Shown: positions 14,578-64,000 of the stretch, piece by piece
How positions within the stretch are numbered: the first letter of the stretch is position 1
How the letters are laid out: every line of letters starts with the position of its first letter
Assembly (NCBI GenBank): GCA_030653365.1
Contig: JAURZL010000007.1
Span: 434,011-498,010, forward strand
Direction: 5' to 3'
Length of the DNA stretch: 64,000 nt
DNA from: Anaerolineaceae bacterium
GTDB lineage: Bacteria; Chloroflexota; Anaerolineae; Anaerolineales; Anaerolineaceae
Notes under the pieces: model-generated
Told to the model about the DNA's origin: nothing
Seen by the model: the letters and a program-made list of their open reading frames with translations, nothing else
Database searches by the model: none
Position numbers and translations under genes: made by a program

Positions 14578-15672
14578 ATGTTAAAAAGAGAATTTTGGCA
14601 ACAGTTTGATTATTTGTTATTAGGGGGTGTGTTAATCCTATGCATTTTTGGTATAGCGATGATTCAGTCAGCGATTGCTGGTAATGAACAAATTTCCATC
14701 TCTGTTTCCAGACAAGTTATTTTTGTTGTTGGTGGAGTTGCTGTCTTATTTCTTACTTCTTTTATTAATTACCGATATCTATCTTCTCTAACAAGAATCA
14801 TGTACATCGTTTCAGTTTTATTACTGATGGGAATATATGTTATCGGTACAGCTGTCTATGGGTCTGCCAGGTGGTTTGACACGGGAGTAATATTGATTCA
14901 ACCATCAGAGCTTGTAAAGACAATTATGATTGTGATATTGGCAGATTATTTTTATAAAACCCAGGATCAGGAAAAAAACCTGAACTGGATATTCAAAAGC
15001 TTCATGATTACAGCATTTGTTGTTTTATGGATTTTTATTCAACCGAACCTTAGTATGTCCATCGTAATCTTTGTGATCTGGTTTTCACTTTTATGGTACG
15101 CTGGATTGCCATTCAAATATTTATTAATTTTCCTGACTGTTGGCATTGTAATTGGAATCATTGGATTTAATTTTTTGGAAGGTTATCAACAAGACCGAGT
15201 TTTAAATTTCCTTTTTCCTGATCCGGATGCAAGATATGGTGAAACTTATAATGTGGATCAAGCTAAAATTTCGATTGGTTCCGGCGGATTATTTGGGATG
15301 GGGTATGGACAGGGATCCCAAGTGCAATTGCGATTTTTAAAAGTCCGGCATACAGATTTTATTTTTTCATCGATGGCGCACGAATTTGGATTTGTGGGGA
15401 CCATATTTGTGATGTTGATATTAGTTTTTGTTATTTACCGGTGTTTTCGTGTAGGACAAAAGGCATCGGATATGTTTGGGCAATTAATTGCGTATGGCGT
15501 AGGGACGTTGCTCTTTTTCCAAATGGCTGTTAATATTGGCGTGAATTTAAATGTAATACCTGTCACTGGTCTTACATTACCTTTTATTAGTTATGGTGGC
15601 AGTTCATTAGCCTCTTTGTTATTAGGAATTGGATTTGTGGAGAGCGTAGCTGCGCATAGACATAGAGATTAA
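14578..15672 (+). CDS. rodA: SEDS-family peptidoglycan glycosyltransferase RodA
   Basis: 364-aa polytopic membrane protein. QPSELVK, HTDFIFS and LPFISYGGSS motifs of the FtsW/RodA/SpoVE family. Called RodA from its context in the mre/mrdA cluster. Confidence 0.9.
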   Translation: MLKREFWQQFDYLLLGGVLILCIFGIAMIQSAIAGNEQISISVSRQVIFVVGGVAVLFLTSFINYRYLSSLTRIMYIVSVLLLMGIYVIGTAVYGSARWFDTGVILIQPSELVKTIMIVILADYFYKTQDQEKNLNWIFKSFMITAFVVLWIFIQPNLSMSIVIFVIWFSLLWYAGLPFKYLLIFLTVGIVIGIIGFNFLEGYQQDRVLNFLFPDPDARYGETYNVDQAKISIGSGGLFGMGYGQGSQVQLRFLKVRHTDFIFSSMAHEFGFVGTIFVMLILVFVIYRCFRVGQKASDMFGQLIAYGVGTLLFFQMAVNIGVNLNVIPVTGLTLPFISYGGSSLASLLLGIGFVESVAAHRHRD

Positions 15673-15688
15673 ATGATTGGAGAAAAAA

Positions 15689-17164
15689 ATGAAGCCAGCC
15701 CGCGTACGATTTGCACCCTCACCAACAGGGCATATGCATTTAGGAAGCGCACGAACAGCGTTATATGATTATTTATTAGCAAAACAAACCGGGGGACAAT
15801 TTATTTTAAGAATAGAAGACACAGATCAAAAAAGGTATGTTAAAGGCGCTGAACAAGAGTTAATTGATGGAATGCGATGGCTGGGATTGGAATGGGATGA
15901 AGGACCAGATGTCGGTGGGGAATATGGACCCTACAGACAATCAGAACGAAAAGAAATATATCAGAAATATGCCAGACAACTGATAGAAAATGATCATGCT
16001 TTCTATTGTTTCTGTACCCAGGACAGACTTCAAAAGGTCAGAGAAGAACAAATAAGCAATAAAATTCAGGCAAAATATGATGGAACCTGCAGAAATATCT
16101 CTCTCGACGAAGCAGATAAAAGAATTAAGAATGGTGAAAGTTATGTGATTCGATTCAAAATGCCAAAAACGGGTACAACCAGCGTTCACGATCATCTCAG
16201 AGGCAATATCGTTGTCGAAAATAATACACTTGATGATTCCATCATTGTAAAATCAGATGGACTTGCTTTATATCATTTAGCTGCACCAGTTGATGACCAT
16301 TTAATGAAAATTACTCATGTTCTAAGAGGTTCAGAGTGGTTACCGACATTCCCTCTTCACAGCTTGATTCATCGTGCTTTTGGGTGGGAAGAGCCTGTAT
16401 GGGTACATTTGAGCGTTTTTCTGAAACCTTCTGGTAAGGGAAAAATGAGCAAACGGGAAGCCATTGATTTAGCGAAAGACGGTAAATCGATTTTTATTAA
16501 AGATTTGCTTGAATTGGGATATCTTCCGGAAGCAATCATCAATTGGATTGCTTTGATGGGGTGGAGCTATGACGATCATACAGAATTTTTCCTGATGAAC
16601 GACCTGATAGAAAAATTTAACCTGGAAAAACTTAATCCATCTCCAGCAGCCATCAATTTCACAAAATTTGATTATTTCAATGGGTTGCATATACGGAATT
16701 TGAGCATTCCTGAATTATCCGAGAGAATTAAACCGTTCTTCCTAGAAAAAGGAATTTTTCCCAGTGAAGAAAAACTACATATGTTAACTCCAATCATCCA
16801 AGAACGGTTACAAACATTAGATGATGCGCCTGATCTGGCAGGTTTTTTATTTGAGGAAGAAATAACAGTTAATTGTGATGATTTGATAGCAAAAAACACT
16901 ACACAATCGGAATCGTTAATGATTCTGAAGGAAATTTATGAAATCATTTCAAAATTTCCAGATGTAAAACATACTACTTTAGAAACCCCGATGCGTGAAT
17001 TGGTTGAAAAATTAGGATACAAACCTGGCCAGGTATTCGGTATTTTGCGCGTAGCTGTTACTGGAAGAATGATTAGTCCACCTTTATTTGAATCAATGGA
17101 AATAATTGGTCGTGAAAAAGTAATATCGAGAATAACTGGTGCAATTCGGTTACTTGAAGCTTGA
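15689..17164 (+). CDS. gltX: Glutamyl-tRNA synthetase
   Basis: RFAPSPTGHMHLGSART (HIGH region) and KMSKR (KMSKS). ATG at 15689 is preceded by GGAG with 6-nt spacing and is preferred over the tracked TTG at 15677. Confidence 0.95.
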   Translation: MKPARVRFAPSPTGHMHLGSARTALYDYLLAKQTGGQFILRIEDTDQKRYVKGAEQELIDGMRWLGLEWDEGPDVGGEYGPYRQSERKEIYQKYARQLIENDHAFYCFCTQDRLQKVREEQISNKIQAKYDGTCRNISLDEADKRIKNGESYVIRFKMPKTGTTSVHDHLRGNIVVENNTLDDSIIVKSDGLALYHLAAPVDDHLMKITHVLRGSEWLPTFPLHSLIHRAFGWEEPVWVHLSVFLKPSGKGKMSKREAIDLAKDGKSIFIKDLLELGYLPEAIINWIALMGWSYDDHTEFFLMNDLIEKFNLEKLNPSPAAINFTKFDYFNGLHIRNLSIPELSERIKPFFLEKGIFPSEEKLHMLTPIIQERLQTLDDAPDLAGFLFEEEITVNCDDLIAKNTTQSESLMILKEIYEIISKFPDVKHTTLETPMRELVEKLGYKPGQVFGILRVAVTGRMISPPLFESMEIIGREKVISRITGAIRLLEA

Positions 17165-17277
17165 TGAATAGGTAGATATAAGTTTTTTTTTTGTTGTTCT
17201 GGGTTCAAGAAAAATGGATGGAAAATTATTAAAACGCCCTGTACAATGAAATCTGAATGTGATAAACTTTTCGTCGG

Positions 17278-17348
17278 TGGGGGTTCGTCTAATGGTAGGA
17301 CAACTGACTCTGGATCAGTATGTAGGGGTTCAAATCCTCTACCCCCAG
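17278..17348 (+). tRNA. tRNA-Gln (anticodon CTG)
   Basis: Hand-folded: acceptor TGGGGGT/ACCCCCA, anticodon stem ACTGA/TCAGT with loop CTCTGGA, T arm AGGGG-TTCAAAT-CCTCT, discriminator G. CCA is not encoded. Confidence 0.85.
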
Positions 17349-17355
17349 CTAGCAA

Positions 17356-17381
17356 ATGTGGCGGTCAAAGCACCGCCACAT
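17356..17381 (+). other. GC-rich 10-bp hairpin downstream of tRNA-Gln
   Basis: ATGTGGCGGT-caaagc-ACCGCCACAT. There is no strong T tract, so it may be a processing or terminator element. Confidence 0.3.
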
Positions 17382-17395
17382 ATGATTTAAGGCTA

Positions 17396-17420
17396 AAAAG
17401 CAGCCATTACAGCTGCTTTT
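17396..17420. terminator. Bidirectional intrinsic terminator between the gltX/tRNA-Gln unit and the convergent minus-strand operon
   Basis: AAAAGCAGC-cattaca-GCTGCTTTT. The A/T tracts on both sides are part of the stem flanks. Confidence 0.5.
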
Positions 17421-17427
17421 ATTGATT

Positions 17428-17667
17428 TTAGTATTCTTCATCTTCATCTAACCAGTCGTCTTCATCTTCCTCCTCTAAACTAGTTAGTTCACCCCATTCA
17501 TCCGCTTCATCTTCATCGTCATTGTCCCAGGGTTCCTCAGGGATTGAATCCGCAGAAGGTGTGTAGGTAATACATCCTTTATCCGGATCTAGTTCTATTA
17601 GAGCAGCAGAACAAAAACCTTCATCTAAGAATTCACAATCCTCATAATGACATCGAATTTTTGGCAT
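17428..17667 (-). CDS. Small Cys-containing (DUF1540-like) protein with a polyacidic, Trp-studded tail
   Basis: 79 aa. The N-terminus IRCHYEDCEFLDEGFCSAALIELD...GC recalls the DUF1540 Cys pattern. The C-terminal ~40 aa are almost entirely D/E with interspersed W. Last gene of the rel-moeA-VKOR string. Confidence 0.5.
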   Translation of the reverse strand: MPKIRCHYEDCEFLDEGFCSAALIELDPDKGCITYTPSADSIPEEPWDNDDEDEADEWGELTSLEEEDEDDWLDEDEEY

Positions 17668-17693
17668 TTAATATTCCTCCTGATAAATCAATT

Positions 17694-18131
17694 TTATTCT
17701 AAAATGGTTTCTCTTTGTTCTTTTGTTAAATTAATAAATGATAGTATAAAAATAGTCATCATTGTTATTGCAGAAATTATACAAAACGGACAAACCGCTT
17801 TAATAACAGCAAATTGCAAGTATGTCAAGTAAATTGAGAATAAAAAGCCTGAAAGAGCGATTCCAAAAACAAATATGCTTCCAAATTCTCTAAATAATTT
17901 AAATTTTTTTTGGATAGAAAGTATCAAAATTATTCCTATATAAGCCAGAATTCCAAAAATTGATATAGGTATTCCGTTCCATTCTGAATAACGACTATTA
18001 TTGACCGACCAGCAATCACCAATTCCTTGTATACACAGTGCTTTATTGTCTGTTAATTTAATAATTGTCAGATAAATTGCATCCAACAAGCCCAATACTG
18101 CAATAATTATTGTTGCTTTTTTTAACATCAT
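17694..18131 (-). CDS. Vitamin K epoxide reductase (VKOR)-family membrane oxidoreductase
   Basis: 145 aa, about 4 TM segments. Loop cysteine pair CIQGIGDC and a membrane-embedded CPFC (CxxC). Confidence 0.65.
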   Translation of the reverse strand: MMLKKATIIIAVLGLLDAIYLTIIKLTDNKALCIQGIGDCWSVNNSRYSEWNGIPISIFGILAYIGIILILSIQKKFKLFREFGSIFVFGIALSGFLFSIYLTYLQFAVIKAVCPFCIISAITMMTIFILSFINLTKEQRETILE

Positions 18132-52205: not shown

Positions 52206-52246
52206 TGCATTGTCCTCGGTTCATATTTTACATCAAAAAATATGTC

Positions 52247-52262
52247 TGGCATACAACTTGCA
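52247..52262 (+). promoter_or_regulatory. Candidate sigma-54 (-24/-12) promoter upstream of rpoN
   Basis: TGGCATacaacTTGCA has GG and GC elements at the canonical spacing. It is 15/16 identical to the site at 56839-56854 and ends 45 nt upstream of the rpoN ATG. Confidence 0.6.
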
Positions 52263-52306
52263 ACATAGCCCTTCTATAGATATACTTATAAAGTGAGGAC
52301 AACATT

Positions 52307-53704
52307 ATGCTCCAATATCAATTTCAGGTACACAAGCCAATAACAACAGCGCATCTTGCGCAAACCATGACTTTGTTAAGCCTTTCTGCCTTTGAACTCA
52401 AGCAGCAAATAGACTCTGAATTGGCTGCGAATCCAGCTTTAGAGATCATTGAAGAACGTCGTTGCCCCCATTGCAAGCGGGTATTACCTGATAATGGAGC
52501 TTGCCCGATCTGTTCCAGGCCAATGAATACCGATAATGACGAACCAATTGTCTATGTTTCACCAATGGATGATTTTATTCCGATGTCTGATTATGACGAT
52601 TCTGATTTTTCGGAAGAACCTTTTTCACCAGCGACTGATGATCTAACCAGTTATGTGATAAAACAAATAGCGCCTGAGTTGTCTAAAGATCAACAACTCA
52701 TCGCCATTCATTTATTGACGAATTTAGATGATGATGGTTTTCTCAGCGTAAAATTAGTTGATGTTGCCCGCTATTTTCATGTTCCAATTTCACAAATAGA
52801 GGAAGTTCAAAAAGTAATTCAATTGGCTGACCCTATTGGAGTTGGATCCATTAATCCACAACAGGCTCTTTTGATTCAATTGGAAGTATTGTCTGAAAAT
52901 AATTCAATTCCTGAATATTCTATTGATATTGTCAAAGACCATATGGATTTATTGAGCAAGCGTCAATATTCAGAAATTGCAAAGAAACTTAAAATTAGTG
53001 TACAGAGAGTTGAAAAAATTGTAGAATTCATCAGTGATAATTTGAATCCTTTCCCAGCTCGCTCGCATTGGGGAAATGTACGCAATCCTTCAGCACCTGA
53101 TTCGAATGTTTATCACCGACCAGATGTATTGATATCCTTTTCGAATAACGATCCAAAAATGCAAATGATTGTTGAGATAGTTATGCCATATTCAGGAACA
53201 CTTCAAGTGAGTCCATTGTATAAACAGACAATAAAGCAAACAGATGCTGAATTAAAAGATGCTATGAAGGGTGATTTGGAACGTGCATCATTATTTGTGA
53301 AGTGTTTACAGCAGAGAAACCATACGATGCAGAGATTAATGCTTGAGTTGGTTAAGATTCAGAAACCTTACCTTACTAAAGGTGAAAAATTTTTAAAACC
53401 AATTACACGGGCAAGTCTTGCGGGGGAACTCGAAGTGCATGAATCAACAATTTCCAGAGCTGTTTCAGGAAAATCAGTTCAATTACCGAATAGAAAAATT
53501 GTACCCATGGCTGCATTTTTCGATAGAAGTCTTTCTGCAAGAACTATTCTTCGAGAAATTGTTTCGGCCGAGTCTAAACCATTGAGTGATACAGAAATTC
53601 AGAAAAAACTCGATGAACGAGGGATTCAAGTTGCACGTCGTACTGTTGCTAAATATCGAGCTATGGAAGGAATACTGCCAGCGCATTTACGGCAGGCTGC
53701 ATAA
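52307..53704 (+). CDS. rpoN: RNA polymerase sigma-54 factor, with a CxxC-x9-CxxC insertion after region I
   Basis: 465 aa. Gln/Leu-rich region I, core-binding region, and the C-terminal RpoN box ARRTVAKYR. Cys53/56/66/69 (RRCPHCKRVLPDNGACPICSRP). Confidence 0.9.
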   Translation: MLQYQFQVHKPITTAHLAQTMTLLSLSAFELKQQIDSELAANPALEIIEERRCPHCKRVLPDNGACPICSRPMNTDNDEPIVYVSPMDDFIPMSDYDDSDFSEEPFSPATDDLTSYVIKQIAPELSKDQQLIAIHLLTNLDDDGFLSVKLVDVARYFHVPISQIEEVQKVIQLADPIGVGSINPQQALLIQLEVLSENNSIPEYSIDIVKDHMDLLSKRQYSEIAKKLKISVQRVEKIVEFISDNLNPFPARSHWGNVRNPSAPDSNVYHRPDVLISFSNNDPKMQMIVEIVMPYSGTLQVSPLYKQTIKQTDAELKDAMKGDLERASLFVKCLQQRNHTMQRLMLELVKIQKPYLTKGEKFLKPITRASLAGELEVHESTISRAVSGKSVQLPNRKIVPMAAFFDRSLSARTILREIVSAESKPLSDTEIQKKLDERGIQVARRTVAKYRAMEGILPAHLRQAA

Positions 53705-53708
53705 GTGA

Positions 53709-55661
53709 ATGAATTCTGAAAAACCAAATTGGTTTCGCGAAGTATTATTAGGAAAAGTACAAAATGATAGTGCTACGATCTTTAAGAATTTATTAAATGT
53801 AATTCAAGATCCTGCAATCATTGTTGATTTTAATCGAAATGAAATAGTTAGTTTTAATGTGGAATTTTTGAAACTGACATCCTATTCACCTGTTGAACTG
53901 ACTACTTTTCAAATTGATGCAATTTTTAATATTGAGGGGGTTATTGATGCATCGATATCAGAGCCTTTTATGCTCGAAATTACAAAACGGAACAAGCAGG
54001 TTGTTGATGGTTATGCCTGGAAATATTACATTGATGATAAAAATTCCCAGTGTGTAATTGTCTTTAATGAAGAACAAATATTTATAGAAAAACAAAAATC
54101 CTGGCAGGATCATCTCTTTTTAACAATGCAGAAATTATTGCGATTGATCGAAGAAGAAGATCTGGAAAGTGCATTACAGAACTCGGTCAAATATATTGAA
54201 AACTTTTTTGAAACCCCACATGTGACAATTTATCAGGTGAATAGTGATATTCCAGAATTAACACGAATCGCAGCGAAAACCGAAAGTGATTTGTTACCAT
54301 TCACTTTACCTTCCAGTGATATTCGATTGGATCAAAAAACGAGTATCTGGACCCCTGGACATAGAGTACAAACCGAATTACAAAAAATTGCCCGGATCAG
54401 TAATCTGGCTTATATTGCAACTTCTGCGTTAGGACCTGGAAAAAGTGCATCAGCATTATTGGTTGTAGGTCAACAGAAGAAACAACCTCCCAAAAATTTA
54501 ATTTCAATTTTGGAGATGTTTTCAGCAGCAATTTCTTCAACACTTCAATATTTCATATTAGTAAAAGCTCTTCGATCAAAAATTGAATCTCAGGATTGGA
54601 TGATTGACGTAAATAATGAAATTCTTGTTCATGTTCAGGATGGAATTATTATTTTAAAACCTGAACTTAAAATCTGGATGATTAATCCAAGTGCAGAAAT
54701 TTTACTAGGTTACCAATCGCATGAAGTATCAGATCGGACTATTGACAATATCCTTATTGGCCCTGATAGCTTTTTACCTTTATTGGAATCAGCAAAAACA
54801 GATTTTGGGATTCATCGTCTTGGAATTGTGCATATTCATAATCGCAATGGTGATTCAGTGCCGGTGGATGCTCGCATTGTCCCGGTAATTCAAAATAATA
54901 ATTTACTCGCAATAATTATTTATTTGCGTGATGTCAGTGAAAATGAAGAGATAAAAACAAGAGCTCAACAATTGGAACATAGGGCTGTATTAGGAGAATT
55001 TACAGCAGTATTTGCTCATGAAGTTCGTAATCCCATCAATAATATTTCAATGGGTTTGCAAATCCTATCGAGAAGTTTTACGGAGGATCCCAAGAACAAA
55101 GATATGGTTGATCGAATGATCCATGATTGTGATCGATTAACCCACCAAATGGAAGCTGTTTTGGCTTATTCAAAACCATTCGATGCGAAATTCGAGTCTG
55201 TAGATGTGGCTATTCTGCTTCAAAGAATTCTTGATCGTTGGAAGCCGAGAATGTCAAGGGTTGGCGTAAAGGAATTTTTCCAAAAAGGGGAAGAATTACC
55301 TTTAATTACCGCAGATCCCCGGCTTTTGGAACAGGTATTTACAAATCTTATTGGTAACGCTATAGAAGCTATGACTCCTGATCAAAAAGGAACATTGGCT
55401 GTTCATATAAATATTTCAAGAACCATTTCAAATTATCCACAAATAGAGATTAAAATAATCGACAGTGGACCTGGCATCCCTGATGATGTCAGAGGGCATG
55501 TTTTCGAACCATTTGTTACAACTAAAAAAACTGGAACCGGATTAGGATTGGCAATTAGTAAACGAATCATTACTGCTCACCGTGGTAATATTACAGTCGA
55601 ATCTTATCCTGGTGGAGGAACAGTTTTCGCTGTTTATTTACCGACCAAACAAGGAGATTAA
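53709..55661 (+). CDS. Soluble multi-sensor (PAS/GAF-like) histidine kinase, NtrB-type
   Basis: 650 aa with no TM segments. H-box FAHEVRNPINNI, N box NLIGNAIEAM, G boxes DSGPGIP and GTGLGLAIS. Starts 4 nt after the rpoN stop. Confidence 0.85.
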   Translation: MNSEKPNWFREVLLGKVQNDSATIFKNLLNVIQDPAIIVDFNRNEIVSFNVEFLKLTSYSPVELTTFQIDAIFNIEGVIDASISEPFMLEITKRNKQVVDGYAWKYYIDDKNSQCVIVFNEEQIFIEKQKSWQDHLFLTMQKLLRLIEEEDLESALQNSVKYIENFFETPHVTIYQVNSDIPELTRIAAKTESDLLPFTLPSSDIRLDQKTSIWTPGHRVQTELQKIARISNLAYIATSALGPGKSASALLVVGQQKKQPPKNLISILEMFSAAISSTLQYFILVKALRSKIESQDWMIDVNNEILVHVQDGIIILKPELKIWMINPSAEILLGYQSHEVSDRTIDNILIGPDSFLPLLESAKTDFGIHRLGIVHIHNRNGDSVPVDARIVPVIQNNNLLAIIIYLRDVSENEEIKTRAQQLEHRAVLGEFTAVFAHEVRNPINNISMGLQILSRSFTEDPKNKDMVDRMIHDCDRLTHQMEAVLAYSKPFDAKFESVDVAILLQRILDRWKPRMSRVGVKEFFQKGEELPLITADPRLLEQVFTNLIGNAIEAMTPDQKGTLAVHINISRTISNYPQIEIKIIDSGPGIPDDVRGHVFEPFVTTKKTGTGLGLAISKRIITAHRGNITVESYPGGGTVFAVYLPTKQGD

Positions 55662-55666
55662 TTCAA

Positions 55667-56830
55667 ATGGGTTTTACAGTCTTGGTAGTGGACGATGAAG
55701 AAAATGCGCGAACAAATCTAGAGACTTTTCTTACGCCATTAGGTTATGAAGTAATTGGTGTGGGAACATTAGAAGATGCCAGGTCGGAACTTCGAAAAGG
55801 AAATTGTGATATTGTTCTACTCGACGTTCAATTACCGGATGGTTTTGGTCCAAACCTATTGTATGAGACTCTCAATATGAAGTTAAGACCACCCATGATC
55901 CTCATTACGGGTTTCCCAGATATAGAAATTGCGGTGGAAGCCATGCGTAATGGCGCACATGATTTCTTAATTAAACCAATAAAACTGGACCGACTTGAAC
56001 TCTCTATCCAGAGGGCAATTGAAATTGTTAAGATGCGGCGCGAATTAGCATTGTTTCGAGATACTCAAAAAAACAGTGTTCAATTTGTTACTGGCAATAG
56101 CAACCATATGAAACATGTATTGAATCAGGCGGAAAGAGCAGCCTCGATGTCCGTTTCAGTTCTCATCACTGGTGAAACAGGTGTTGGAAAAGATGTGCTT
56201 GCTAATTTTATTCATAGCGTAGGTCCCCGATCCCACAAGATGTTTGTTGCCATTAATTGCGCAGCTATTCAAAGCACTATGCTTGAATCGGAATTATTTG
56301 GGCATGAATCTGGTGCATTCACCGGAGCAGATAAACGAAAACATGGTCTCATGGAAACGGCTGATGAAGGTGTTTTGTTTTTGGATGAAATTTCATCGAT
56401 GCCATTGGACATGCAAGCAAAATTATTACGAGCCATAGAATCTAAGGCTTTCCGAAGAGTGGGTGGAAATAATCTGATTAATGTAGATGTCCAGGTTGTT
56501 GCAGCTTCCAATAGAAATTTGGAGCAAATGATTGAAAAAAATGAATTTCGCTCAGATCTCTATTACAGATTGAAAGTAGTTGATCTTCATGTCCCCGCAT
56601 TAAGGGAACGAAAAGAAGACATTCCGGAATTGGTTGGTTTCTTCATAAAACAAAAAAACATGAAGATGGGTGTAAATATTCTGGACATTACTCCTCGAGC
56701 TATGGAAAAACTAGTTACATATAGTTGGCCAGGCAATATTCGGGAATTAAGTAACGCCATTGAAAGTGCAATGTTATTCTGTGACACCGGGATTATTGAT
56801 CTACCAAATTTGCCCTTGAATCTGCAATAA
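55667..56830 (+). CDS. Sigma-54-dependent response regulator (REC plus AAA+) lacking a C-terminal DNA-binding domain
   Basis: 387 aa. REC domain with DIVLLDVQLPDG; Walker A GETGVGKD; GAFTGA loop (ESGAFTGA); Walker B LFLDEI; WPGNIRELSNAIE. The protein ends about 24 aa after this motif, with no HTH and no continuing frame. Confidence 0.9.
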   Translation: MGFTVLVVDDEENARTNLETFLTPLGYEVIGVGTLEDARSELRKGNCDIVLLDVQLPDGFGPNLLYETLNMKLRPPMILITGFPDIEIAVEAMRNGAHDFLIKPIKLDRLELSIQRAIEIVKMRRELALFRDTQKNSVQFVTGNSNHMKHVLNQAERAASMSVSVLITGETGVGKDVLANFIHSVGPRSHKMFVAINCAAIQSTMLESELFGHESGAFTGADKRKHGLMETADEGVLFLDEISSMPLDMQAKLLRAIESKAFRRVGGNNLINVDVQVVAASNRNLEQMIEKNEFRSDLYYRLKVVDLHVPALRERKEDIPELVGFFIKQKNMKMGVNILDITPRAMEKLVTYSWPGNIRELSNAIESAMLFCDTGIIDLPNLPLNLQ

Positions 56831-56838
56831 AAAGTTAT

Positions 56839-56854
56839 TGGCACACAACTTGCA
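56839..56854 (+). promoter_or_regulatory. Sigma-54 (-24/-12) promoter for the downstream membrane-protein/TPR operon
   Basis: TGGCACacaacTTGCA matches the consensus TGGCAC-N5-TTGCW with exact spacing. It lies 8 nt after the EBP stop and 35 nt before the next start codon. Confidence 0.75.
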
Positions 56855-56889
56855 TCAAACCTCTAGAAGATTGTTCTGGAGGTTTTCTT

Positions 56890-57201
56890 ATGCAAAAAGA
56901 TGAAATAATCACGTTGCTAACACTTGTTTTTATGGGATTAGGATTTGTCTCATTTCTAACGGGTTTTATAGTTTTGTTAACCCGTGTATTAGGTAAAGGG
57001 ATAACTAAGATCGCCAATGAAACCCAAAAAGTGGTTCAAAAAGGTATTACAGAAGAAATAGCCTCAATTATTGGGAATGCATCTGTATTGATTGAATCAC
57101 TTAACCAACTGGTTACGACCTCTGCTGGAATTGGTGTGTTCCTGATGGTATTGGGAGTTTTACTTATGGGTGGATCCTTTGCATTATTCTTGCGATTCTA
57201 G
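56890..57201 (+). CDS. Small two-TM membrane protein (unknown function), first cistron behind the sigma-54 promoter
   Basis: 103 aa. GGAGG SD 7 nt upstream. Hydrophobic helices at both ends flank a ~45-aa polar helical segment. Confidence 0.6.
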   Translation: MQKDEIITLLTLVFMGLGFVSFLTGFIVLLTRVLGKGITKIANETQKVVQKGITEEIASIIGNASVLIESLNQLVTTSAGIGVFLMVLGVLLMGGSFALFLRF

Positions 57202-57221
57202 ATTATTCAACAGGAGTTTAC

Positions 57222-60200
57222 ATGAATACGACATTATTTTTTAAATCCTTAAAGGATAGTCTGAATGAAATTGATCAGAAGATCCTGATCGAGTCAGCCA
57301 ATCAAGATAAGGTAATTCTTAGCAAAATAAGCAATTATGATTTTTACAGTCAGTGTATTGAGACATTCGGAAATAAACTTTCAACGTGGACACTTGGAAA
57401 AATTGCTTTGTTTTCAATTGGTATCAAAATCGATATTCTTGACAAAGATATAAAAGAAAAATTCTATCTCAAGAATTCTATATCTGTAGTAGATGATACT
57501 TTGAAAAATCACATAAAAGAGGTAGATTTTACAAAAGCAACGAATATCGCACTGGCTCTATTTGAAAGAAAAAGGAAAAACCAGTCATGGATTGGATTAA
57601 TTGATGAATTGTCTTCAGGTATTCCCAGAAAATACGTATTGACGACCTGGCGAACCAGCATTTCAATTCTTTATAGTTTACTTAATGATGACGAAAATTT
57701 CCTGCTGGCATTAGTTAATGATAATGATCCCTACTTAGGTATCAGCTTTGTAAACCATATTATCGCAACTCAGTTAATATCCCACAAACAAAAAGCAACG
57801 TTAATTGTCAAATTGCTTGAGAAACTTCCTATTGAGACTCAAATAACCTGGCTTCAAACAATCCCAGTACAAATTTCAATCTTAAGTGAAGAAATTGCAG
57901 TTGCTCTAGGAAATTCTAAAACTTTCACCAGTTCTCAAAATGTCAGTCATACCCTGACCGATTTTGATGATGTATCGAAATTGGACTCGATATTTAAGAT
58001 CAATCTATTAAATGGCTTTAAGAACAAAATCGAAAATTCTCCAGTTCAAGCCAAAAGCAATTTCCGTTCAGCTAAGGAAAAACTTCAAAAGATCCTTCAA
58101 TTAATTGATCTCAACCTGATTCACAAATCGATTGATGATTTGAAAGACGACACAATCAAATATGTTAATGATCCAAAATTCAATGATCTGGTTTTTACAC
58201 AAATAGGTACAGATCAACAAACTTCTGGAGGTAAAAATCAAGATAACCAATTAAATGGAATTCTGGCAAATCTTGCTTTTGCCTGTGAGGTCCTGAAGAA
58301 TGGTGATGCTCCAAAAGCCAGGGAGATTGGTTCGAGGCAGTTTAGAAATTGGATTGAAACTCAACAGTCCAGCTGGCCTTCACCAGAAACGCTCTCTTAT
58401 CTCATAAAACTTGACCACAAAAAATTAATCGAACTTCTCAATAAATTAAGCTTAAATGGAATAAGTGCTGAATATGTGAAATTCTTAGAATCTATTTCGA
58501 TTCCTCGTGTGGATTATCAGGAGGAATATATTGAAGGTCTTCAAACCTTAAATCAGACAGATGAAGCTTATCGAGAATTAAAAATCTCATTATTGTCAGA
58601 CATCAATAATGAGAGTGTATATAAACAGATTTTTTCAATTTTAGAAAAGAATAATAAATGGGACTCCTTGTATTTGGAATGGGAAGATTATTCTAGAAAT
58701 TTCAATTTATCCCACGATGATTGGATTCATTTTGCAGATGCAGCCTTAGAAGCTAAAAAATATGATGAGACAAAAAAAATAATTGAGAAAATGCAAAAAG
58801 AGGGCGTCAATGAAACCCAAATTGATATGCTTTGGGGCAAGATGTTCTACAGAGAAGGTGATTATGAAAAAGCGAGAACCATTTTTGAAGATACAACAAA
58901 AAGATTGCCTGATTATGAGGAAGGTTGGATAGTTCTGAGTGAAGTTTATAACAAGATGGGTTTAATCCAGAAATCATTAGAAACCCTGAGATCTGCAGTT
59001 ATTACAATTCCAGATTCACCAATCATTCAATTTAATCTGGCTAAATCCTGCATCGATCAGGAATTATATGCAGAAGCATTACCTTATATTCGGAAAGCAG
59101 TTGCTTTAGACCCGAATAATGCCACCTTCAATCATTCATTAATTCAAACGTTACAAATATTAGGAAGAATTGATGAAGCAGACACGATTTTAAGTCAGGC
59201 AAGATTGAAATGGCCACTTGAGCCAGAACTTGCTTTTGCTGAAGCGGTTCGCCAGGTTGAAAAACAAAATCGAGATGCTGCTTTGATTGCATTTGAAGTT
59301 TCTGTAAACACTACTAGGATGGACGTCCCGATTTCTCGATTACTTTTGTACGTGCAAACAATTCTTGGTGACCGTCCTGAGAAATTTTTACCAACCGATG
59401 GCAAATTCAACAATATGAGTAATCTGTTGTCTTCTCAACGAATTCTTCAAAAAGCATTAAAAAATTCAGTAGGTGATAATCAATATTTACAAATAATTTT
59501 AGGAGAAATTTATTTCTTAATTGGTGAATACGAAGCGGCTAATTCGTTGTATACGCAATTGATAAATGAGTTTAAATCAAATCAAAAACACCAACCTCTA
59601 TTGTGGAGAGTCTATGCAGGATTGGGACTGGTGAAAATTGGTCTTTCAGAACTTGACAGTGGAATAGCTGCTTTACAGGAAGCGGATCAACTTAATCAAA
59701 AACATTTGGGTATCAAACAAAAATGTGCGGAAGCTTATCTTTCTGCTTCATTGCTAAGTCAGGCTGAGGCAAAAGCAGAAGAAATTTATGAATTAGGATC
59801 CACAGTAATTGATAACTTGTTATGGTATTCCGATTTTATGACAAAATTAGGGAAACCAGAAAGAGAAATCCGTGGTTTGGAACAAATACTCCATTTTGAT
59901 CCATCCAATTGTTCTGCAATAACTCGATTAGCAAGTATTTATATTTCCAATGGCGATTCAGAACTGGCTAGTGAAGTTTTGGAGAGACTAACAAACGTTG
60001 AAAATATTCCCAATGAAGATATTAGAAGCGCTGTGATTTCATTTCTGCGGATCGGGAAAAATGAAGAAGCACTCGTCTGGTTTGGTAAGATTTCAGAAAG
60101 TAAAAATGGTCTCCAAACAAAAGTAAACAAATTTGAGAAAATTTACTTGTTGATTATCAATAATCGATGGGAAATGGCTTTGGCAGAAATTCAGGAGATT

Positions 60201-62591
60201 AAGAAATCCACTTCCAACGCTAGGATAATTTCTTCTCTGGAAGGAGAATGCCTATTCAATAAAGAAGATTATTCTGCTTCTGTAAATGCTTATGAGACAG
60301 CATTATTACTTCAAAAAGGCGAATCAAATGAGGTTATTGAAAATATCCACAAAGGCTCATTAATCCCTGAGAATTGGATACAAAGTCGGGTGCAGGATTT
60401 ACAGATTTTGTATTCATTGTCAATTGCATACAAAAAGCTCATGGAGTTTGATCATAGTCTTGAGGTAATCAACCGAATGATTAAGTTTAATCCATCAGAT
60501 CTTTGGATTTATTTGATGGGGGCAGAATATGCAATGGAAATTACTGATTACGATTTAGTTTCAGATTATTTATTGAAATTAAAAAATAATACAAATTCAT
60601 CAGAGTGGCAGGGAACAAGCATGTATGCAACTGCAATAGATTATGCATGTGCATATCTCGATGGTCGCGATTATCGATTGTCGATTAATGAAAACGAAGA
60701 AAATGATGAAATAAAGAAATTACTTGCAGCTCATCAGATGCTCGATAAAAATTTGTTTGAAGAAGCCACAAAAATATATGATGAAACTTCTCAGTCGAAT
60801 ATTAACGAGACATCCAACTCAAATAAATATGATGATGGAAAATATGATGATATCAAAAAATCCATAACAAAAAGGTTAGCATTGATATTGGCATGGCGAT
60901 TATATGATTTTGAAAAAACAGCAGAATTTCTTGATTATCAAACAAATAATTCATTGGAGCGAGTTGATCAAGCAATTTTCAAATTATCAGTGAATTTAAG
61001 TTACAAAAAATATCTGGGTTTATTCAATTCGAATTTGGTGAAAGCTCACCAAAGTAAATTGATTGAGGCTGAGTTGAACAATCCCGATGTAACAAATCAA
61101 TTGCTATCCGTCATAAATCGATATGGGAAAACAAGAGCGATTAAAAATATTGAACAATTATATAAAGTAATAAAGGAAAAAGATTTTTCAACTGCATTTA
61201 GTCTGCTGAATTCTAAAACACTTCCAAAATACCAGGTTTTTATATTGGTTGACGAATTAATGAAGGCTGGAAAATCGGAAATTGTTAATGAATATTTTAC
61301 AAATTTTAGAAGTGAATTGAGTGACAGCATATTTTATCTCATGAACAGACTGAATGATCCGATTGACGAATTAATTTCATTTATCGAAAACCAAACTTCA
61401 TCGGATGATCCCCTTTGGTTAATGACCTGCTCAATGATTTTTGAGAAAGGTGGATTTCACGATGAGGCTATAGATTTTGCTGAACAGGCATATAAAATTT
61501 GGCCTCAGGAAGATCAATGGGTAATTCGAATTGCAAAACTATATCAAATTATCGGTGATTTTGACAAAGCAGATGAGTATTGGGCGAAAATCGTTGAAAG
61601 TTCTAATAGCACTGAATCTGTTATTTATGAGTATGCAAATTTATTACTCGACAATAAAAAATCCAGTGAGGTAATTCAATTATTGGATCATCATAAGCCC
61701 AATATCGCTGAATCCTTTGAATTTCATTTTGTAATGGCAAAGGCATATCTTCTGGAGAGATCACATGAAAACCTAATCCAATCTATTCAATTAGCAAGAA
61801 AATTTAGACCTGATTCCGCAGAAATCCAATATTTGGAAGCTGAAGCTTATTTGTTGATTGGCGAAGTTGAAAAATCAAAGAACAAAATTCAAGATATTCT
61901 TGTCAATAATCCTAGATTTGAAAAAGCCCATATTCTAAATGCAAATCTTCTCCGAATTGATGGAAAGAATTCTGACGCCATAAAATTGATTAATCGAAGT
62001 TTAGATATATGTCCTGATAGCAAAGGCTTATTAATTGAAAAGGTTCGAAATCTCAGGGATATGAAAAACTATTCAGAGGGATTACTTATCACGTCTGAAT
62101 TGTCTCAGCGTTTTCCAAAGGATTTAGATGTGCTTGAAATTCTGGCTAATTTATATATCGATATTGAGGATTTCCAGGCAGCTGAAATGGTGGCAAGAAA
62201 GAGTATTCACCTTCAACCAAATCAATCATCAATCCATTTACTGTTAGGGAAAATTGCCAGAAAACAAGGGCATTTGGATCAGGCATTAGATCACCTCACT
62301 AAAGCTGGATTAATAAAAATTGAAAGTATAGAACCCTGGTTGGAAATGGGTGACATTTATCTTGAACAAAATGAATTGGAAAAAGCTCTTGATGCTTTCA
62401 GAGAAGCTATCTCAAGAGATGAAAACGATTATCGAGCTTTTTATAAAGCAGGTCTGCTCTTACGTGATCTCAAGGATTATCAAGGTGCAGAGAAGATGTT
62501 GAAAATTGCGTCGTCCCTATCTCCAAAAGACACAAGTATTCGCCGACAATTAGCCGGTGTTATTGCATTGAATTTGGTTCACTCTTCATAG
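57222..62591 (+). CDS. Giant (1789 aa) TPR-repeat protein with a ~500-aa N-terminal region of unknown fold
   Basis: A single uninterrupted ORF with AGGAG SD. From about residue 500 onward there are many 34-residue TPR-like units (for example GDYEKARTIFEDTTKRLPDYEEGW, NELEKALDAFREAISRDENDYRAF). No enzymatic motif recognised. Confidence 0.8.
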   Translation: MNTTLFFKSLKDSLNEIDQKILIESANQDKVILSKISNYDFYSQCIETFGNKLSTWTLGKIALFSIGIKIDILDKDIKEKFYLKNSISVVDDTLKNHIKEVDFTKATNIALALFERKRKNQSWIGLIDELSSGIPRKYVLTTWRTSISILYSLLNDDENFLLALVNDNDPYLGISFVNHIIATQLISHKQKATLIVKLLEKLPIETQITWLQTIPVQISILSEEIAVALGNSKTFTSSQNVSHTLTDFDDVSKLDSIFKINLLNGFKNKIENSPVQAKSNFRSAKEKLQKILQLIDLNLIHKSIDDLKDDTIKYVNDPKFNDLVFTQIGTDQQTSGGKNQDNQLNGILANLAFACEVLKNGDAPKAREIGSRQFRNWIETQQSSWPSPETLSYLIKLDHKKLIELLNKLSLNGISAEYVKFLESISIPRVDYQEEYIEGLQTLNQTDEAYRELKISLLSDINNESVYKQIFSILEKNNKWDSLYLEWEDYSRNFNLSHDDWIHFADAALEAKKYDETKKIIEKMQKEGVNETQIDMLWGKMFYREGDYEKARTIFEDTTKRLPDYEEGWIVLSEVYNKMGLIQKSLETLRSAVITIPDSPIIQFNLAKSCIDQELYAEALPYIRKAVALDPNNATFNHSLIQTLQILGRIDEADTILSQARLKWPLEPELAFAEAVRQVEKQNRDAALIAFEVSVNTTRMDVPISRLLLYVQTILGDRPEKFLPTDGKFNNMSNLLSSQRILQKALKNSVGDNQYLQIILGEIYFLIGEYEAANSLYTQLINEFKSNQKHQPLLWRVYAGLGLVKIGLSELDSGIAALQEADQLNQKHLGIKQKCAEAYLSASLLSQAEAKAEEIYELGSTVIDNLLWYSDFMTKLGKPEREIRGLEQILHFDPSNCSAITRLASIYISNGDSELASEVLERLTNVENIPNEDIRSAVISFLRIGKNEEALVWFGKISESKNGLQTKVNKFEKIYLLIINNRWEMALAEIQEIKKSTSNARIISSLEGECLFNKEDYSASVNAYETALLLQKGESNEVIENIHKGSLIPENWIQSRVQDLQILYSLSIAYKKLMEFDHSLEVINRMIKFNPSDLWIYLMGAEYAMEITDYDLVSDYLLKLKNNTNSSEWQGTSMYATAIDYACAYLDGRDYRLSINENEENDEIKKLLAAHQMLDKNLFEEATKIYDETSQSNINETSNSNKYDDGKYDDIKKSITKRLALILAWRLYDFEKTAEFLDYQTNNSLERVDQAIFKLSVNLSYKKYLGLFNSNLVKAHQSKLIEAELNNPDVTNQLLSVINRYGKTRAIKNIEQLYKVIKEKDFSTAFSLLNSKTLPKYQVFILVDELMKAGKSEIVNEYFTNFRSELSDSIFYLMNRLNDPIDELISFIENQTSSDDPLWLMTCSMIFEKGGFHDEAIDFAEQAYKIWPQEDQWVIRIAKLYQIIGDFDKADEYWAKIVESSNSTESVIYEYANLLLDNKKSSEVIQLLDHHKPNIAESFEFHFVMAKAYLLERSHENLIQSIQLARKFRPDSAEIQYLEAEAYLLIGEVEKSKNKIQDILVNNPRFEKAHILNANLLRIDGKNSDAIKLINRSLDICPDSKGLLIEKVRNLRDMKNYSEGLLITSELSQRFPKDLDVLEILANLYIDIEDFQAAEMVARKSIHLQPNQSSIHLLLGKIARKQGHLDQALDHLTKAGLIKIESIEPWLEMGDIYLEQNELEKALDAFREAISRDENDYRAFYKAGLLLRDLKDYQGAEKMLKIASSLSPKDTSIRRQLAGVIALNLVHSS

Positions 62592-62601
62592 GAGAACTCA
62601 T

Positions 62602-64000
62602 ATGGAATTTTCAAATCCAACTCATGAACAAAACATTAATCGTGGAACAGTTATTCAACTGATTGTTTCAGCATTACAAAATAATAAAATTGTCTTTGGA
62701 AGACAGTTGGCGCAAAAATGGTTATCGTCTTATCCTGGCGATCTTACAATGCAATATTATTTGGCTTTGTTTTACCAAAAAGAAAACAAATTAGATTTAG
62801 CCATAGAAACAACTAAAAATCTAATAGAAGCTGACCCAGAAAATTTAACTGCGCATGAATTTTATGCAACCTTACCAATCCCTGAAGATGAAAAAAACCT
62901 TTCTTTGGCTTGTATTCATATTTTGGGTGGTGTAATCAAAAACAAAAGTGCTTTACCTGCCTGGAGCCCAGCATTACGGGTTGTAAAGAAATCCATAGGA
63001 AAAGAGAAATTTGATAATGCCGGAGATTTAATGGTCAGGGTACTGTCTTTAAAATTAGATAATCCGATTATCAATTTGTTCCACATCAAGTCTATATATT
63101 TTCAACATGACTCTACAACAACCAGAAATCTTGCAGAAATTTATTATCAAAAATGGCCAAAAACAATCCTGTATAAATTAATTCTGGCTGAACAATTATT
63201 AGAAACCGGTGAAGAAGAAGAAGCTGTAAATTTATTACATGAATGTGTCGCAAATGATTCTGCTGGACAGGTAGCTCGTAGATTGTGGGGAGACCAACAT
63301 GTATTCTTACCATTGTGGCCAGAAGTTCTAACTATCCGTTTTGATTTTCAGGTTCCAGGAGAAGTTGCGTCAGATATGGGATGGAATCGTTTACCAGAAG
63401 GAAAATTAGAAGTCAGCAATTACATTTTTGATGGTCAACCAGAAGAAAATTCAAAGAACTTTTCTGGTGCTCCCCGAAGTAAGGCGTTTATGGAGGCAGA
63501 AAAGGAGTTTCAAAGGATTGCTAAATCAATCAAAAAAGATTTTAGCGGCAAGCTGGATGGACGTTTTCCTGTCTATGTAATTATGTCAACCAAAACTGGG
63601 CTTATTCAACAATATGGAGAACAAACCTATAATGTGATCTTGCAATCAATGTCACAGATAAATTTGGTAATGCAAAAGAAACCAGGGTGGGATAGTCTCC
63701 TATTTATTCCAGATGATCCTAAAAGCCAACAAAAATTAAATTTAGCACCGATTACAGTAATCGACCCGTGGAAATTGAAATTAGCAATTCATGATTTAGA
63801 TAAAATGCTTGCAAAACGCGGAGAACGTATTGGATCTTTATTGATTGTAGGTGGAAATGAGGTCGTTCCATTCCATCGATTACCCAATCCAACAGATGAT
63901 GTTGATGACGAAATTATGTCTGATAACCCTTATGGAAGTTTGGATAATAATTACTTTGTTACAAACTGGCCTTTAGGGCGGATCATAGGGGAAAAAGGGC
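62602..64000 (+). CDS. Open-ended ORF (more than 466 aa, 3' end outside the window): N-terminal TPR-like region plus a domain with a gingipain/peptidase-C25-like motif
   Basis: Absent from the supplied ORF track, which lists no plus-strand ORF here; there is no stop codon in this frame in the window. I translated it by hand from ATG 62602 (AGGAGA SD 6 nt upstream) and found no in-frame stop to base 63999. It ends ...LLIVGGNEVVPFHRLPNPTDDVDDEIMSDNPYGSLDNNYFVTNWPLGRIIGEKG. Confidence 0.7.
   Translation, partial: MEFSNPTHEQNINRGTVIQLIVSALQNNKIVFGRQLAQKWLSSYPGDLTMQYYLALFYQKENKLDLAIETTKNLIEADPENLTAHEFYATLPIPEDEKNLSLACIHILGGVIKNKSALPAWSPALRVVKKSIGKEKFDNAGDLMVRVLSLKLDNPIINLFHIKSIYFQHDSTTTRNLAEIYYQKWPKTILYKLILAEQLLETGEEEEAVNLLHECVANDSAGQVARRLWGDQHVFLPLWPEVLTIRFDFQVPGEVASDMGWNRLPEGKLEVSNYIFDGQPEENSKNFSGAPRSKAFMEAEKEFQRIAKSIKKDFSGKLDGRFPVYVIMSTKTGLIQQYGEQTYNVILQSMSQINLVMQKKPGWDSLLFIPDDPKSQQKLNLAPITVIDPWKLKLAIHDLDKMLAKRGERIGSLLIVGGNEVVPFHRLPNPTDDVDDEIMSDNPYGSLDNNYFVTNWPLGRIIGEKG

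Follow-up and report, generated by a model that had tools for sequence, protein, structure and literature searches.

A probable two-promoter sigma-54 circuit of the Anaerolineales and the TPR/C25 protease operon next to it

The window analysed here, a 64,000-nucleotide (nt) stretch of contig JAURZL010000007.1 from an Anaerolineaceae bacterium, ends in a run of six genes on the forward strand that joins a block of sigma-54 regulators to an operon for large proteins of the TPR and peptidase C25 families. The regulator block begins with rpoN, encoding sigma-54 (52307-53704, 465 aa), which is followed after 4 nt by the gene for a soluble PAS histidine kinase (53709-55661, 650 aa) and, after a further 5 nt, by the gene for a sigma-54 activator of the REC-AAA+ type, that is, a member of the enhancer-binding proteins (55667-56830, 387 aa). 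The window contains a single such activator and a single rpoN. After a gap of 59 nt comes sm103, a 103-aa protein with two transmembrane segments (56890-57201); 20 nt further on lies the gene for a giant, predicted cytoplasmic TPR protein (57222-62591, 1789 aa), and another 10 nt separate it from an open reading frame that runs off the window end (62602-64000) and represents the first 466 codons of the C25 protein. In a longer copy of the same contig (locus L001) this last frame is complete (15381-17894 of that copy, 837 aa) and is followed by alaS. The tight packing of the three regulator genes and the spacing of the three frames behind them had been described in an initial annotation made from the letters alone, and the listing of open reading frames bears out both.

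Two candidate sigma-54 promoter elements of the -24/-12 type frame the regulator block. One (TGGCATACAACTTGCA, 52247-52262, forward strand) lies 44 nt ahead of the rpoN ATG, with a predicted start near 52273, while the other (TGGCACACAACTTGCA, 56839-56854, forward strand) begins 8 nt past the stop codon of the activator gene and has a predicted start near 56865. Both had already been pointed out by the initial annotation and were found again at these positions as exact pattern matches. Each stands upstream of a gene and agrees with the consensus TGGCAC-N5-TTGCW, in which the GG and GC doublets are 10 bp apart, and the starts were placed by the usual geometry, 12 nt after the C of the GC doublet. 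In the window the two copies share 15 of 16 positions, and in several relatives they do not differ at all. In the 64 kb, the 16-mer pattern TGGCAYACAACTTGCA has exactly these two matches (at 52247 and 56839, both on the forward strand), for a shuffle expectation of 0.13, at least two matches being reached in 2 of 100 shuffles. The looser form TGGC-N7-TTGCW adds three matches, all on the minus strand and all within open reading frames.

The conservation of these elements was followed in two sets of loci. A scan with the sigma-54 of the window, limited to one genome per species, returned 63 loci, all from Anaerolineales and with a sigma-54 identity of 45-91%, among them those of Longilinea arvoryzae, Ornatilinea apprima, Bellilinea, Anaerolinea thermophila and A. 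thermolimosa. A second, independent scan searched metagenome contigs with the C25 protein as the anchor and provided 80 further loci. In every one of the 58 testable loci, a TGG/TTGC motif at the correct spacing lies 51-68 nt ahead of the rpoN start codon, and the fuller form TGGCAY-N5-TTGCA is present at this distance in each of the 60 distinct rpoN upstream regions, which stem from about 60 Anaerolineales species. The same motif recurs 11-82 nt past the activator stop codon in nearly all loci. Counted from the operon side, 93 of 94 distinct sm103 upstream regions carry the element within 260 nt, and the activator gene is directly upstream in 91 of these 93. Throughout the 60 rpoN regions, and in 93 of the 94 output regions, the GG and GC doublets are invariant at a fixed spacing, while the flanking bases vary. 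Within the rpoN-anchored loci L001-L066, the strict motif is confined to the rpoN and output positions, save for one intragenic match in L055 and a tandem pair in L056; a looser motif gives about seven stray matches in the C25-anchored loci. No further conserved sigma-54 site was found in the approximately 2.4 Mb of neighborhood sequence, which samples the same region of many genomes.

Two loci in which the operon has been separated from the regulators are especially informative. In L140 the operon stands behind two ABC-transporter genes, and in L146 it lies beside a divergent gene; in both it is away from rpoN and its kinase and activator genes, and in both the element is kept (TGGCATAGAAATTGCA and AGGCATACATCTTGCA, respectively). 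The element therefore travels with the operon rather than with the position of the regulators, as would be expected of a real regulatory link.

The promoter of rpoN has a second conserved component. A TAnnnT hexamer follows TTGCA after 16-18 nt in 60 of 60 distinct rpoN upstream regions and reads exactly TATACT in 57 of them; in an anchored listing, the spacing of TATACT from TTGCA is mostly 17 nt and sometimes 16 or 18. At the output promoter, TAnnnT is found in only 5 of 52 regions and TATACT in none of the 52. In the window, a generic promoter scan lists TTGCAA-N17-TATACT as a promoter of the sigma-70 type (52258-52286, forward strand), whose -35 hexamer is the -12 element of the sigma-54 site. 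The rpoN promoter can thus be read as an overlapping sigma-54/sigma-70 pair in which TTGCA serves twice, and the predicted starts of the two are about 20 nt apart (near 52273 for sigma-54 and near 52293 for sigma-70). Such a dual promoter would probably provide basal expression and occlusion by the sigma-54 holoenzyme in its resting state, with amplification confined to times when the activator is switched on. The initial annotation had called the module self-amplifying, which is only half of the picture, given this overlapping pair. Upstream of the rpoN sigma-54 element there is a further conserved sequence, ATTTTACC(A), which reads as TGGTAAAAT on the opposite strand and corresponds to an extended -10 for the divergent gene trmFO (minus strand, 52225-52252 of the window, at the same place in relatives). 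In the window, the sigma-54 -24 element, taken as its reverse complement, supplies the -35-like hexamer of trmFO, ATGCCA, so that some 60 bp of DNA may be common to three promoters.

The gene order itself is also conserved. According to tblastn with the window proteins, essentially all sufficiently long rpoN-anchored loci have the order rpoN, kinase, activator, sm103, TPR and C25. Among the C25-anchored loci with enough upstream sequence, all but three (L140, L146 and L148) have the activator, the kinase and rpoN upstream, and in L068 the order is kept although the downstream flank differs. The linkage of the regulators with the TPR and C25 genes, for which the initial annotation had proposed a comparison of related genomes, is thus conserved in both sets of loci.

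With regard to the regulator proteins, the sigma-54 of the window matches its three Pfam domains above threshold (Sigma54_AID PF00309, CBD PF04963 and DBD PF04552) and has the RpoN box ARRTVAKYR at residue 443. Against TIGR02395 it scores 270.5 bits, slightly below the cut-off of 277.35. A peculiarity of the protein is a CPxC-x9-CPxC motif at residues 53-69 (52463-52513 of the window), inserted in the normally acidic and variable region II. All 60 of the distinct orthologues from Anaerolineales have these four cysteines, whose arrangement resembles a zinc ribbon; a zinc ribbon is not known to occur in other sigma-54 proteins. In the kinase, Pfam recognizes PAS_9, HisKA and HATPase_c domains, with a single significant PAS domain at residues 305-411. 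The initial annotation had described it as a soluble PAS/GAF kinase; the PAS domain and, as there is no hydrophobic segment, the solubility are borne out, whereas a GAF domain was not detected. A search of the N-terminal 300 residues for a GAF or another sensor domain gave only PAS_9 at an E value of 0.13 and no match in the PDB. The nearest NCBIfam profile is AtoS, under whose cut-off the protein remains.

The activator combines a receiver domain (Response_reg PF00072, residues 5-114), in which Asp53 in the context LLDVQLPD is the candidate phosphoacceptor, with a Sigma54_activat domain (PF00158, residues 142-307, E 6e-69) that has its GAFTGA loop at residue 216, and with an AAA_lid_14 domain. 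The nearest solved chain is the NtrC family regulator 1ny5 (E 1e-90). The lid domain ends at residue 386 of 387, and Pfam gave no HTH_8 match for a C-terminal helix-turn-helix. The alignments to the NtrC and AtoC profiles stop about 75 positions short of the profile end, and all the orthologues seen have 385-393 aa and terminate in the lid domain. The activator therefore lacks a DNA-binding domain throughout. An activator of this kind would have to act from solution on any sigma-54 closed complex, and specificity would reside in the promoters, not in an enhancer. This fits a cell with very few sigma-54 promoters, without proving it.

At the output promoter, the DNA that immediately follows TTGCA forms an inverted repeat, whose 5' arm contains a sequence complementary to the Shine-Dalgarno sequence (anti-SD, CCTCY) and whose 3' arm is the Shine-Dalgarno sequence (SD) GGAGG itself, often extending to the ATG. 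In the window, this hairpin occupies 56851-56894 (forward strand), with the anti-SD arm ACCTCT at 56859-56864 paired to GGAGG at 56878-56882; it folds with -22 kcal/mol (z -4.7), its outer helix extends as far as the ATG, with a T-rich run behind the stem. A hairpin was obtained in all of the 50-odd distinct regions that were folded, with the 5' arm beginning 5-11 nt upstream of the predicted sigma-54 start. The two arms covary: an alignment-free test in which arms were swapped between regions gave -14.6 kcal/mol for own arms and -9.6 kcal/mol for swapped ones, none of 10000 permutations reaching the own value, although the relatedness of the sequences inflates these permutation statistics. 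A structure count on the alignment showed pairing in 78% of the cells, compared to 69% after shuffling and 43-48% with a slid partner, and 57 double changes where 28 were expected. RNAalifold returned no pairs from a MAFFT alignment of the 5' leaders, in which loops of unequal length were misaligned. A search of the leaders in Rfam found no known RNA family, and a simple terminator scan of the window did not call the hairpin. A run of 5-7 T comes after the stem in low-GC or AT-rich members, as in a terminator, but no T-run does so in GC-rich ones, and in many genomes there are only about four T in the first ten bases. Of the two detached operons, L140, with its co-directional upstream genes, keeps the hairpin; in L146, where the upstream gene is divergent, no anti-SD was seen by inspection, the region not having been folded. 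No such hairpin is present at the rpoN promoter.

The two-transmembrane character ascribed to sm103 agrees with its two hydrophobic segments (residues 4-38 and 73-103). The protein is well conserved, and an alignment of 85 distinct orthologues shows a motif, QKGIxEEhAGLVGNAS, in the loop between the two helices. It has 221 database relatives, and there is no Pfam match for the window protein or for any but one of the relatives listed. The 1789-aa protein is a TPR protein, as had been proposed: many Pfam TPR families match it from about residue 440 to 1780, and there is no transmembrane segment. It diverges rapidly, with 21-32% identity between genera by tblastn and 25-30% in a separate search. 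In relatives, the TPR gene frequently abuts the C25 gene or runs into it. Two lineages (L134, 9541-12553, and L143, 65-3245) lack it, C25 coming directly after sm103, so that the giant TPR protein is dispensable for the conserved core.

The open-ended frame had been announced as TPR plus C25-like, and the complete 837-aa protein of L001 substantiates this. An N-terminal TPR region is followed by a protease domain of family C25 (clan CD) and a C-terminal beta domain. The match to Peptidase_C25 (PF01364) has an E value of 6.2e-11 and 42.6 bits, the cut-off being 23. A full-length alignment drawn from more than 117 relatives shows the context of the clan-CD dyad, H563-G564 and A608-C609, to be invariant in 117 C25 sequences. 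An AlphaFold model built with 117 sequences reaches a pLDDT of 83.5, and in it the TPR region (residues 10-240) is followed by a disordered linker and then by the alpha/beta and the beta domain; an earlier run with 15 sequences, in which the pLDDT was below 50 over the protease domain, was excluded from the fold search. The top Foldseek match in the PDB is the catalytic and Ig-like domains of gingipain K (4rbm, E 7.8e-9), followed by TPR proteins and, at low TM-scores, by the TPR-CHAT protease Csx29. Sequence and profile searches against the PDB gave only TPR proteins and no gingipain. There is no hydrophobic segment anywhere in the C25 protein, and its N-terminus is polar as read by eye, no dedicated signal-peptide predictor having been run. 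With neither a hydrophobic N-terminus nor a transmembrane segment, the protease is predicted to be cytoplasmic, and it has an intact clan-CD catalytic dyad and, by this reading, no export signal. We consider regulated intracellular proteolysis by a membrane-associated TPR/protease complex the most likely output of the operon, albeit with low confidence.

A link to known anti-phage defence systems was rejected, as PADLOC gave no meaningful match: there was none for the C25 protein and sm103, only a short one of the TPR type for the TPR protein, and only one through the generic AAA+ domain for the activator. Likewise, alaS was considered as an operon member and rejected. It has its own promoter, with a hairpin and a T-run before the gene, and it is replaced by other genes in L068; the output operon is thus taken to be sm103-TPR-C25. 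Between the C25 stop and alaS (L001, 17895-17965), the sequence runs from TTGCAA-N17-TATAAT through a 9-bp hairpin (ATGGGCAAA/TTTGCCCAT) and the T-run to the alaS SD. The predicted sigma-70 start of alaS falls within the 5' arm of this hairpin, a layout of a promoter inside a terminator that is also seen at the sigma-54 output promoter.

Taken together, these features make it likely that a lineage-wide, two-promoter sigma-54 circuit of the Anaerolineales drives sm103-TPR-C25, all mechanistic steps of which we infer from sequence. The initial annotation had arrived at the same core, a sigma-54 cassette that regulates itself and is coupled to a TPR/clan-CD protease operon, and this is supported by the conserved unit and by the footprints that both elements leave among relatives. 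In the proposed circuit, the housekeeping sigma factor would transcribe rpoN, the kinase and the activator genes at a basal level from TTGCAn-N17-TATACT, while resting sigma-54 holoenzyme, sitting as a closed complex on the overlapping site, would limit this transcription. An intracellular signal sensed by the kinase would lead to phosphorylation of the activator, which, lacking a DNA-binding domain, would act from solution on any sigma-54 closed complex and fire both promoters. Firing of both would amplify the three regulators and switch on the operon. Transcripts that read through from the regulator block carry the anti-SD arm and would hence be terminated, or be untranslatable at sm103, whereas sigma-54 transcripts would start at this arm or downstream of it, which would leave the SD exposed. 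The hairpin would in this way act as a gate, which is the least secure part of the model, since it rests on predicted start sites. The output would probably be a cytoplasmic complex associated with the membrane, whose TPR scaffolds would offer substrates to a gingipain-like endopeptidase. A bolder version can be imagined, in which multicellular, filamentous Anaerolineae possess a single-output, bistable cell-fate switch: a cytoplasmic signal would set off the self-amplifying loop, the sole product would be a membrane-tethered, TPR-scaffolded, caspase-like clan CD protease, the consequence would be a programmed proteolytic event, for instance fragmentation of the filament, dormancy or death of the cell, and the output would be gated both by sigma-54 initiation and by the start-dependent unmasking of the ribosome-binding site. 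We regard this version as improbable.

Several observations weigh against the proposed circuit and are best considered together with the alternatives to which they lend themselves. The conserved neighborhood also includes the genes for an M28 peptidase, trmFO and alaS, and synteny is generally high in the order, so that gene order alone is weak evidence; the case for a regulatory link is carried by the promoters. One alternative is that the genes stand side by side through inherited synteny, with no bearing on regulation, and that the 16-mers are not promoters. The syntenic housekeeping neighbors and the modest improbability of two matches in one window (the 2 of 100 shuffles) speak for it. 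Nevertheless, the invariance of GG and GC at fixed spacing in 60 of 60 and 93 of 94 regions with varying surroundings, the presence of the element at the detached operons of L140 and L146, and the agreement with the canonical consensus TGGCAC-N5-TTGCW beside rpoN, whose product recognizes this element, make this explanation very improbable. A contrary case is found in L148 (612-1871), from a high-GC lineage, where sm103 begins 9 nt after a co-directional, unrelated gene of 302 aa and no recognisable sigma-54 site is present; this operon seems to have been absorbed into another transcription unit. Another alternative is that the module is a general sigma-54 system with a wider regulon, of which the TPR/C25 operon is merely the nearest target. 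Two loci, L045 (A. thermolimosa NZ_DF967965.1, 9900-16100) and L056 (7350-15000, with two tandem sigma-54 elements), have the intact rpoN-kinase-activator block and the dual promoter, and the operon is not adjacent. On the 3.44-Mb contig of A. thermolimosa, Anaerolinea TPR and sm103 queries found no match, in a search limited by word size and in which small open reading frames were perhaps uncalled; the operon is likely absent from the rest of that genome. This pattern suggests other targets or a recent loss. The DNA-binding-domain-less activator of Chlamydia, moreover, controls dozens of genes (PMC7482065). Against a wider regulon stand the lack of another conserved site in about 2.4 Mb, which represents the same region of many genomes, and the single activator in 64 kb. 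We give the wider regulon somewhat less than an even chance. In these two loci the regulators are followed by unrelated genes: L045 has a cytidylate-kinase-like gene and a phosphoribosyltransferase gene, and L056 a gene for a DEAD/HNH helicase.

Other alternatives concern individual parts of the circuit. The site at rpoN could be mainly an operator, at which sigma-54 holoenzyme blocks the sigma-70 promoter in a negative autoregulation with little or no positive feedback. The sharing of TTGCA by the two promoters in 60 of 60 regions would agree with this, as would the repression of an overlapping sigma-70 promoter by sigma-54 binding at glmY (PMC3045617) and the negative rpoN autoregulation reported for Rhizobium leguminosarum (as cited in PMC3538637). 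However, with an activator that lacks a DNA-binding domain, there is nothing obvious to stop a closed complex at the rpoN site from being fired, and the identity of the two sites, at 15 of 16 positions in the window and complete in several relatives, argues that they are equally competent. A predominantly negative role is therefore rather unlikely in our view, although negative autoregulation and positive feedback at rpoN are compatible and not mutually exclusive. The hairpin, in turn, could be a plain intrinsic terminator of the regulator block, or a stabilizing 5' stem-loop that is also part of sigma-54 transcripts. The 5-7 T after the stem in low-GC members and the similar hairpin with a T-run between the C25 stop and alaS point in this direction. 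Furthermore, the start sites are predictions, and a sigma-54 start only a few bases earlier would place the hairpin in sigma-54 transcripts as well. On the other hand, many genomes have only about four T in ten bases after the stem, and the SD is invariably part of the 3' arm, which often takes in the ATG as well. The hairpin is also kept in L140 behind unrelated co-directional genes, while no anti-SD was seen in L146, where the upstream gene is divergent. We consider a plain terminator or stem-loop doubtful.

The proposed circuit can be compared with several known systems. In Chlamydia, sigma-54 is a switch for a change of cell state, and its activator CtcC, the partner of the kinase CtcB, is likewise an AtoC/NtrC-like REC-AAA+ protein of about 386 aa without a DNA-binding domain (PMC7482065). 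CtcC is the closest characterised counterpart of the activator described here. In contrast to the Anaerolineales, where the three regulators form one block with a sigma-54/sigma-70 dual promoter and one adjacent output operon, the chlamydial rpoN transcript changes little as those of ctcB and ctcC increase, and the study reports no control of rpoN by sigma-54 itself (PMC7482065). Overlapping promoters are known from glmY of E. coli and Salmonella, where sigma-54 represses the sigma-70 promoter and the two-component activator of the GlrK/GlrR pair fires the sigma-54 promoter; the two share a common start site and require GlrR-binding enhancers and IHF (PMC3045617). In the Anaerolineales, by comparison, the -12 element doubles as the -35 hexamer, the predicted starts are separated by some 20 nt, and an activator devoid of a DNA-binding domain would act on rpoN itself. 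The discussion of the glmY study asks whether such a sigma-54/sigma-70 overlap exists outside the enterobacteria (PMC3045617). An rpoN gene that feeds its own synthesis from a sigma-54-dependent, NifA-dependent promoter is found in rhizobial prxS-rpoN2 (PMC3538637). There, however, rpoN2 is a second copy, the DNA-binding activator is encoded elsewhere, and there is neither an overlapping housekeeping promoter nor a co-transcribed kinase and activator.

On the output side, the likeness to gingipains consists of a C25 match above the curated threshold, the His-Gly...Ala-Cys dyad and a fold that is matched best by gingipain K. Gingipains are virulence proteases that Bacteroidota secrete; they carry a signal peptide, a prodomain and a C-terminal domain for the type IX secretion system. 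The C25 protein of the window differs in having no hydrophobic N-terminus, in its N-terminal TPR domain and in its monoderm Chloroflexi host; signs of gingipain-type secretion were absent in that no hydrophobic segment was found, the type IX C-terminal domain not having been searched for specifically. The combination of an N-terminal TPR region with a C-terminal clan-CD protease in the cytoplasm recalls Csx29, the TPR-CHAT protein of the type III-E CRISPR 'Craspase', whose chains 8eey_B, 8eex_B and 7y84_C are whole-chain fold matches of the C25 protein at E values of 1e-5 to 1e-4, with low TM-scores of 0.21-0.26. Unlike Csx29, the C25 protein has no CHAT match in Pfam and no PADLOC match, and it occupies a fixed chromosomal position rather than a defence island; no cas genes were called in the neighborhoods displayed around the C25 operons. 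The proposed gate has a parallel in the fold-back inhibition of IS10 and IS50, in which transcripts reading through from outside hide the ribosome-binding site in a hairpin, while those from the element's own promoter start inside it and are translatable. In the Anaerolineales, by contrast, the own promoter would be sigma-54-dependent, and the upstream transcription would come from the circuit's own regulator genes.

Each component has a precedent; the combination and the output are new. The initial annotation had stated that no characterised system of this architecture was known, and none was found in the literature searched, where queries for sigma-54 or rpoN in Chloroflexi and Anaerolinea and for gingipain in Anaerolineae retrieved no description of the circuit. 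Among the entries shown in a sigma-54 census of 2011, Anaerolinea does not appear, and Herpetosiphon is the sole Chloroflexi genome with sigma-54.

Sigma-54 is usually made constitutively and shared by several DNA-binding activators. Here it appears to belong to a compact cassette that regulates itself, whose activator is devoid of a DNA-binding domain and whose target is hard-wired beside it, order-wide in abundant but poorly studied Chloroflexi. The circuit offers a testable model for the use of sigma-54 by Anaerolineae and would provide a second, independent case of overlapping sigma-54/sigma-70 promoters. It also draws attention to a family of cytoplasmic gingipain-like proteases that have TPR partners and are uncharacterised. 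The tight control of these proteases suggests that they are costly or dangerous for the cell when active. The hairpin, if the proposal is right, would offer a clear natural case of promoter-selective translation.

One minor observation concerns the region beyond the operon. No sigma-54 element was seen near a further conserved gene of 48 aa, which has a weak match to Flp/Fap pilin and is found on the opposite strand, some kb further downstream, flanked by a metallophosphatase gene and the glycine-cleavage genes (L001, 23456-23602; L003, 18503-18649; L067, 19053-19199).

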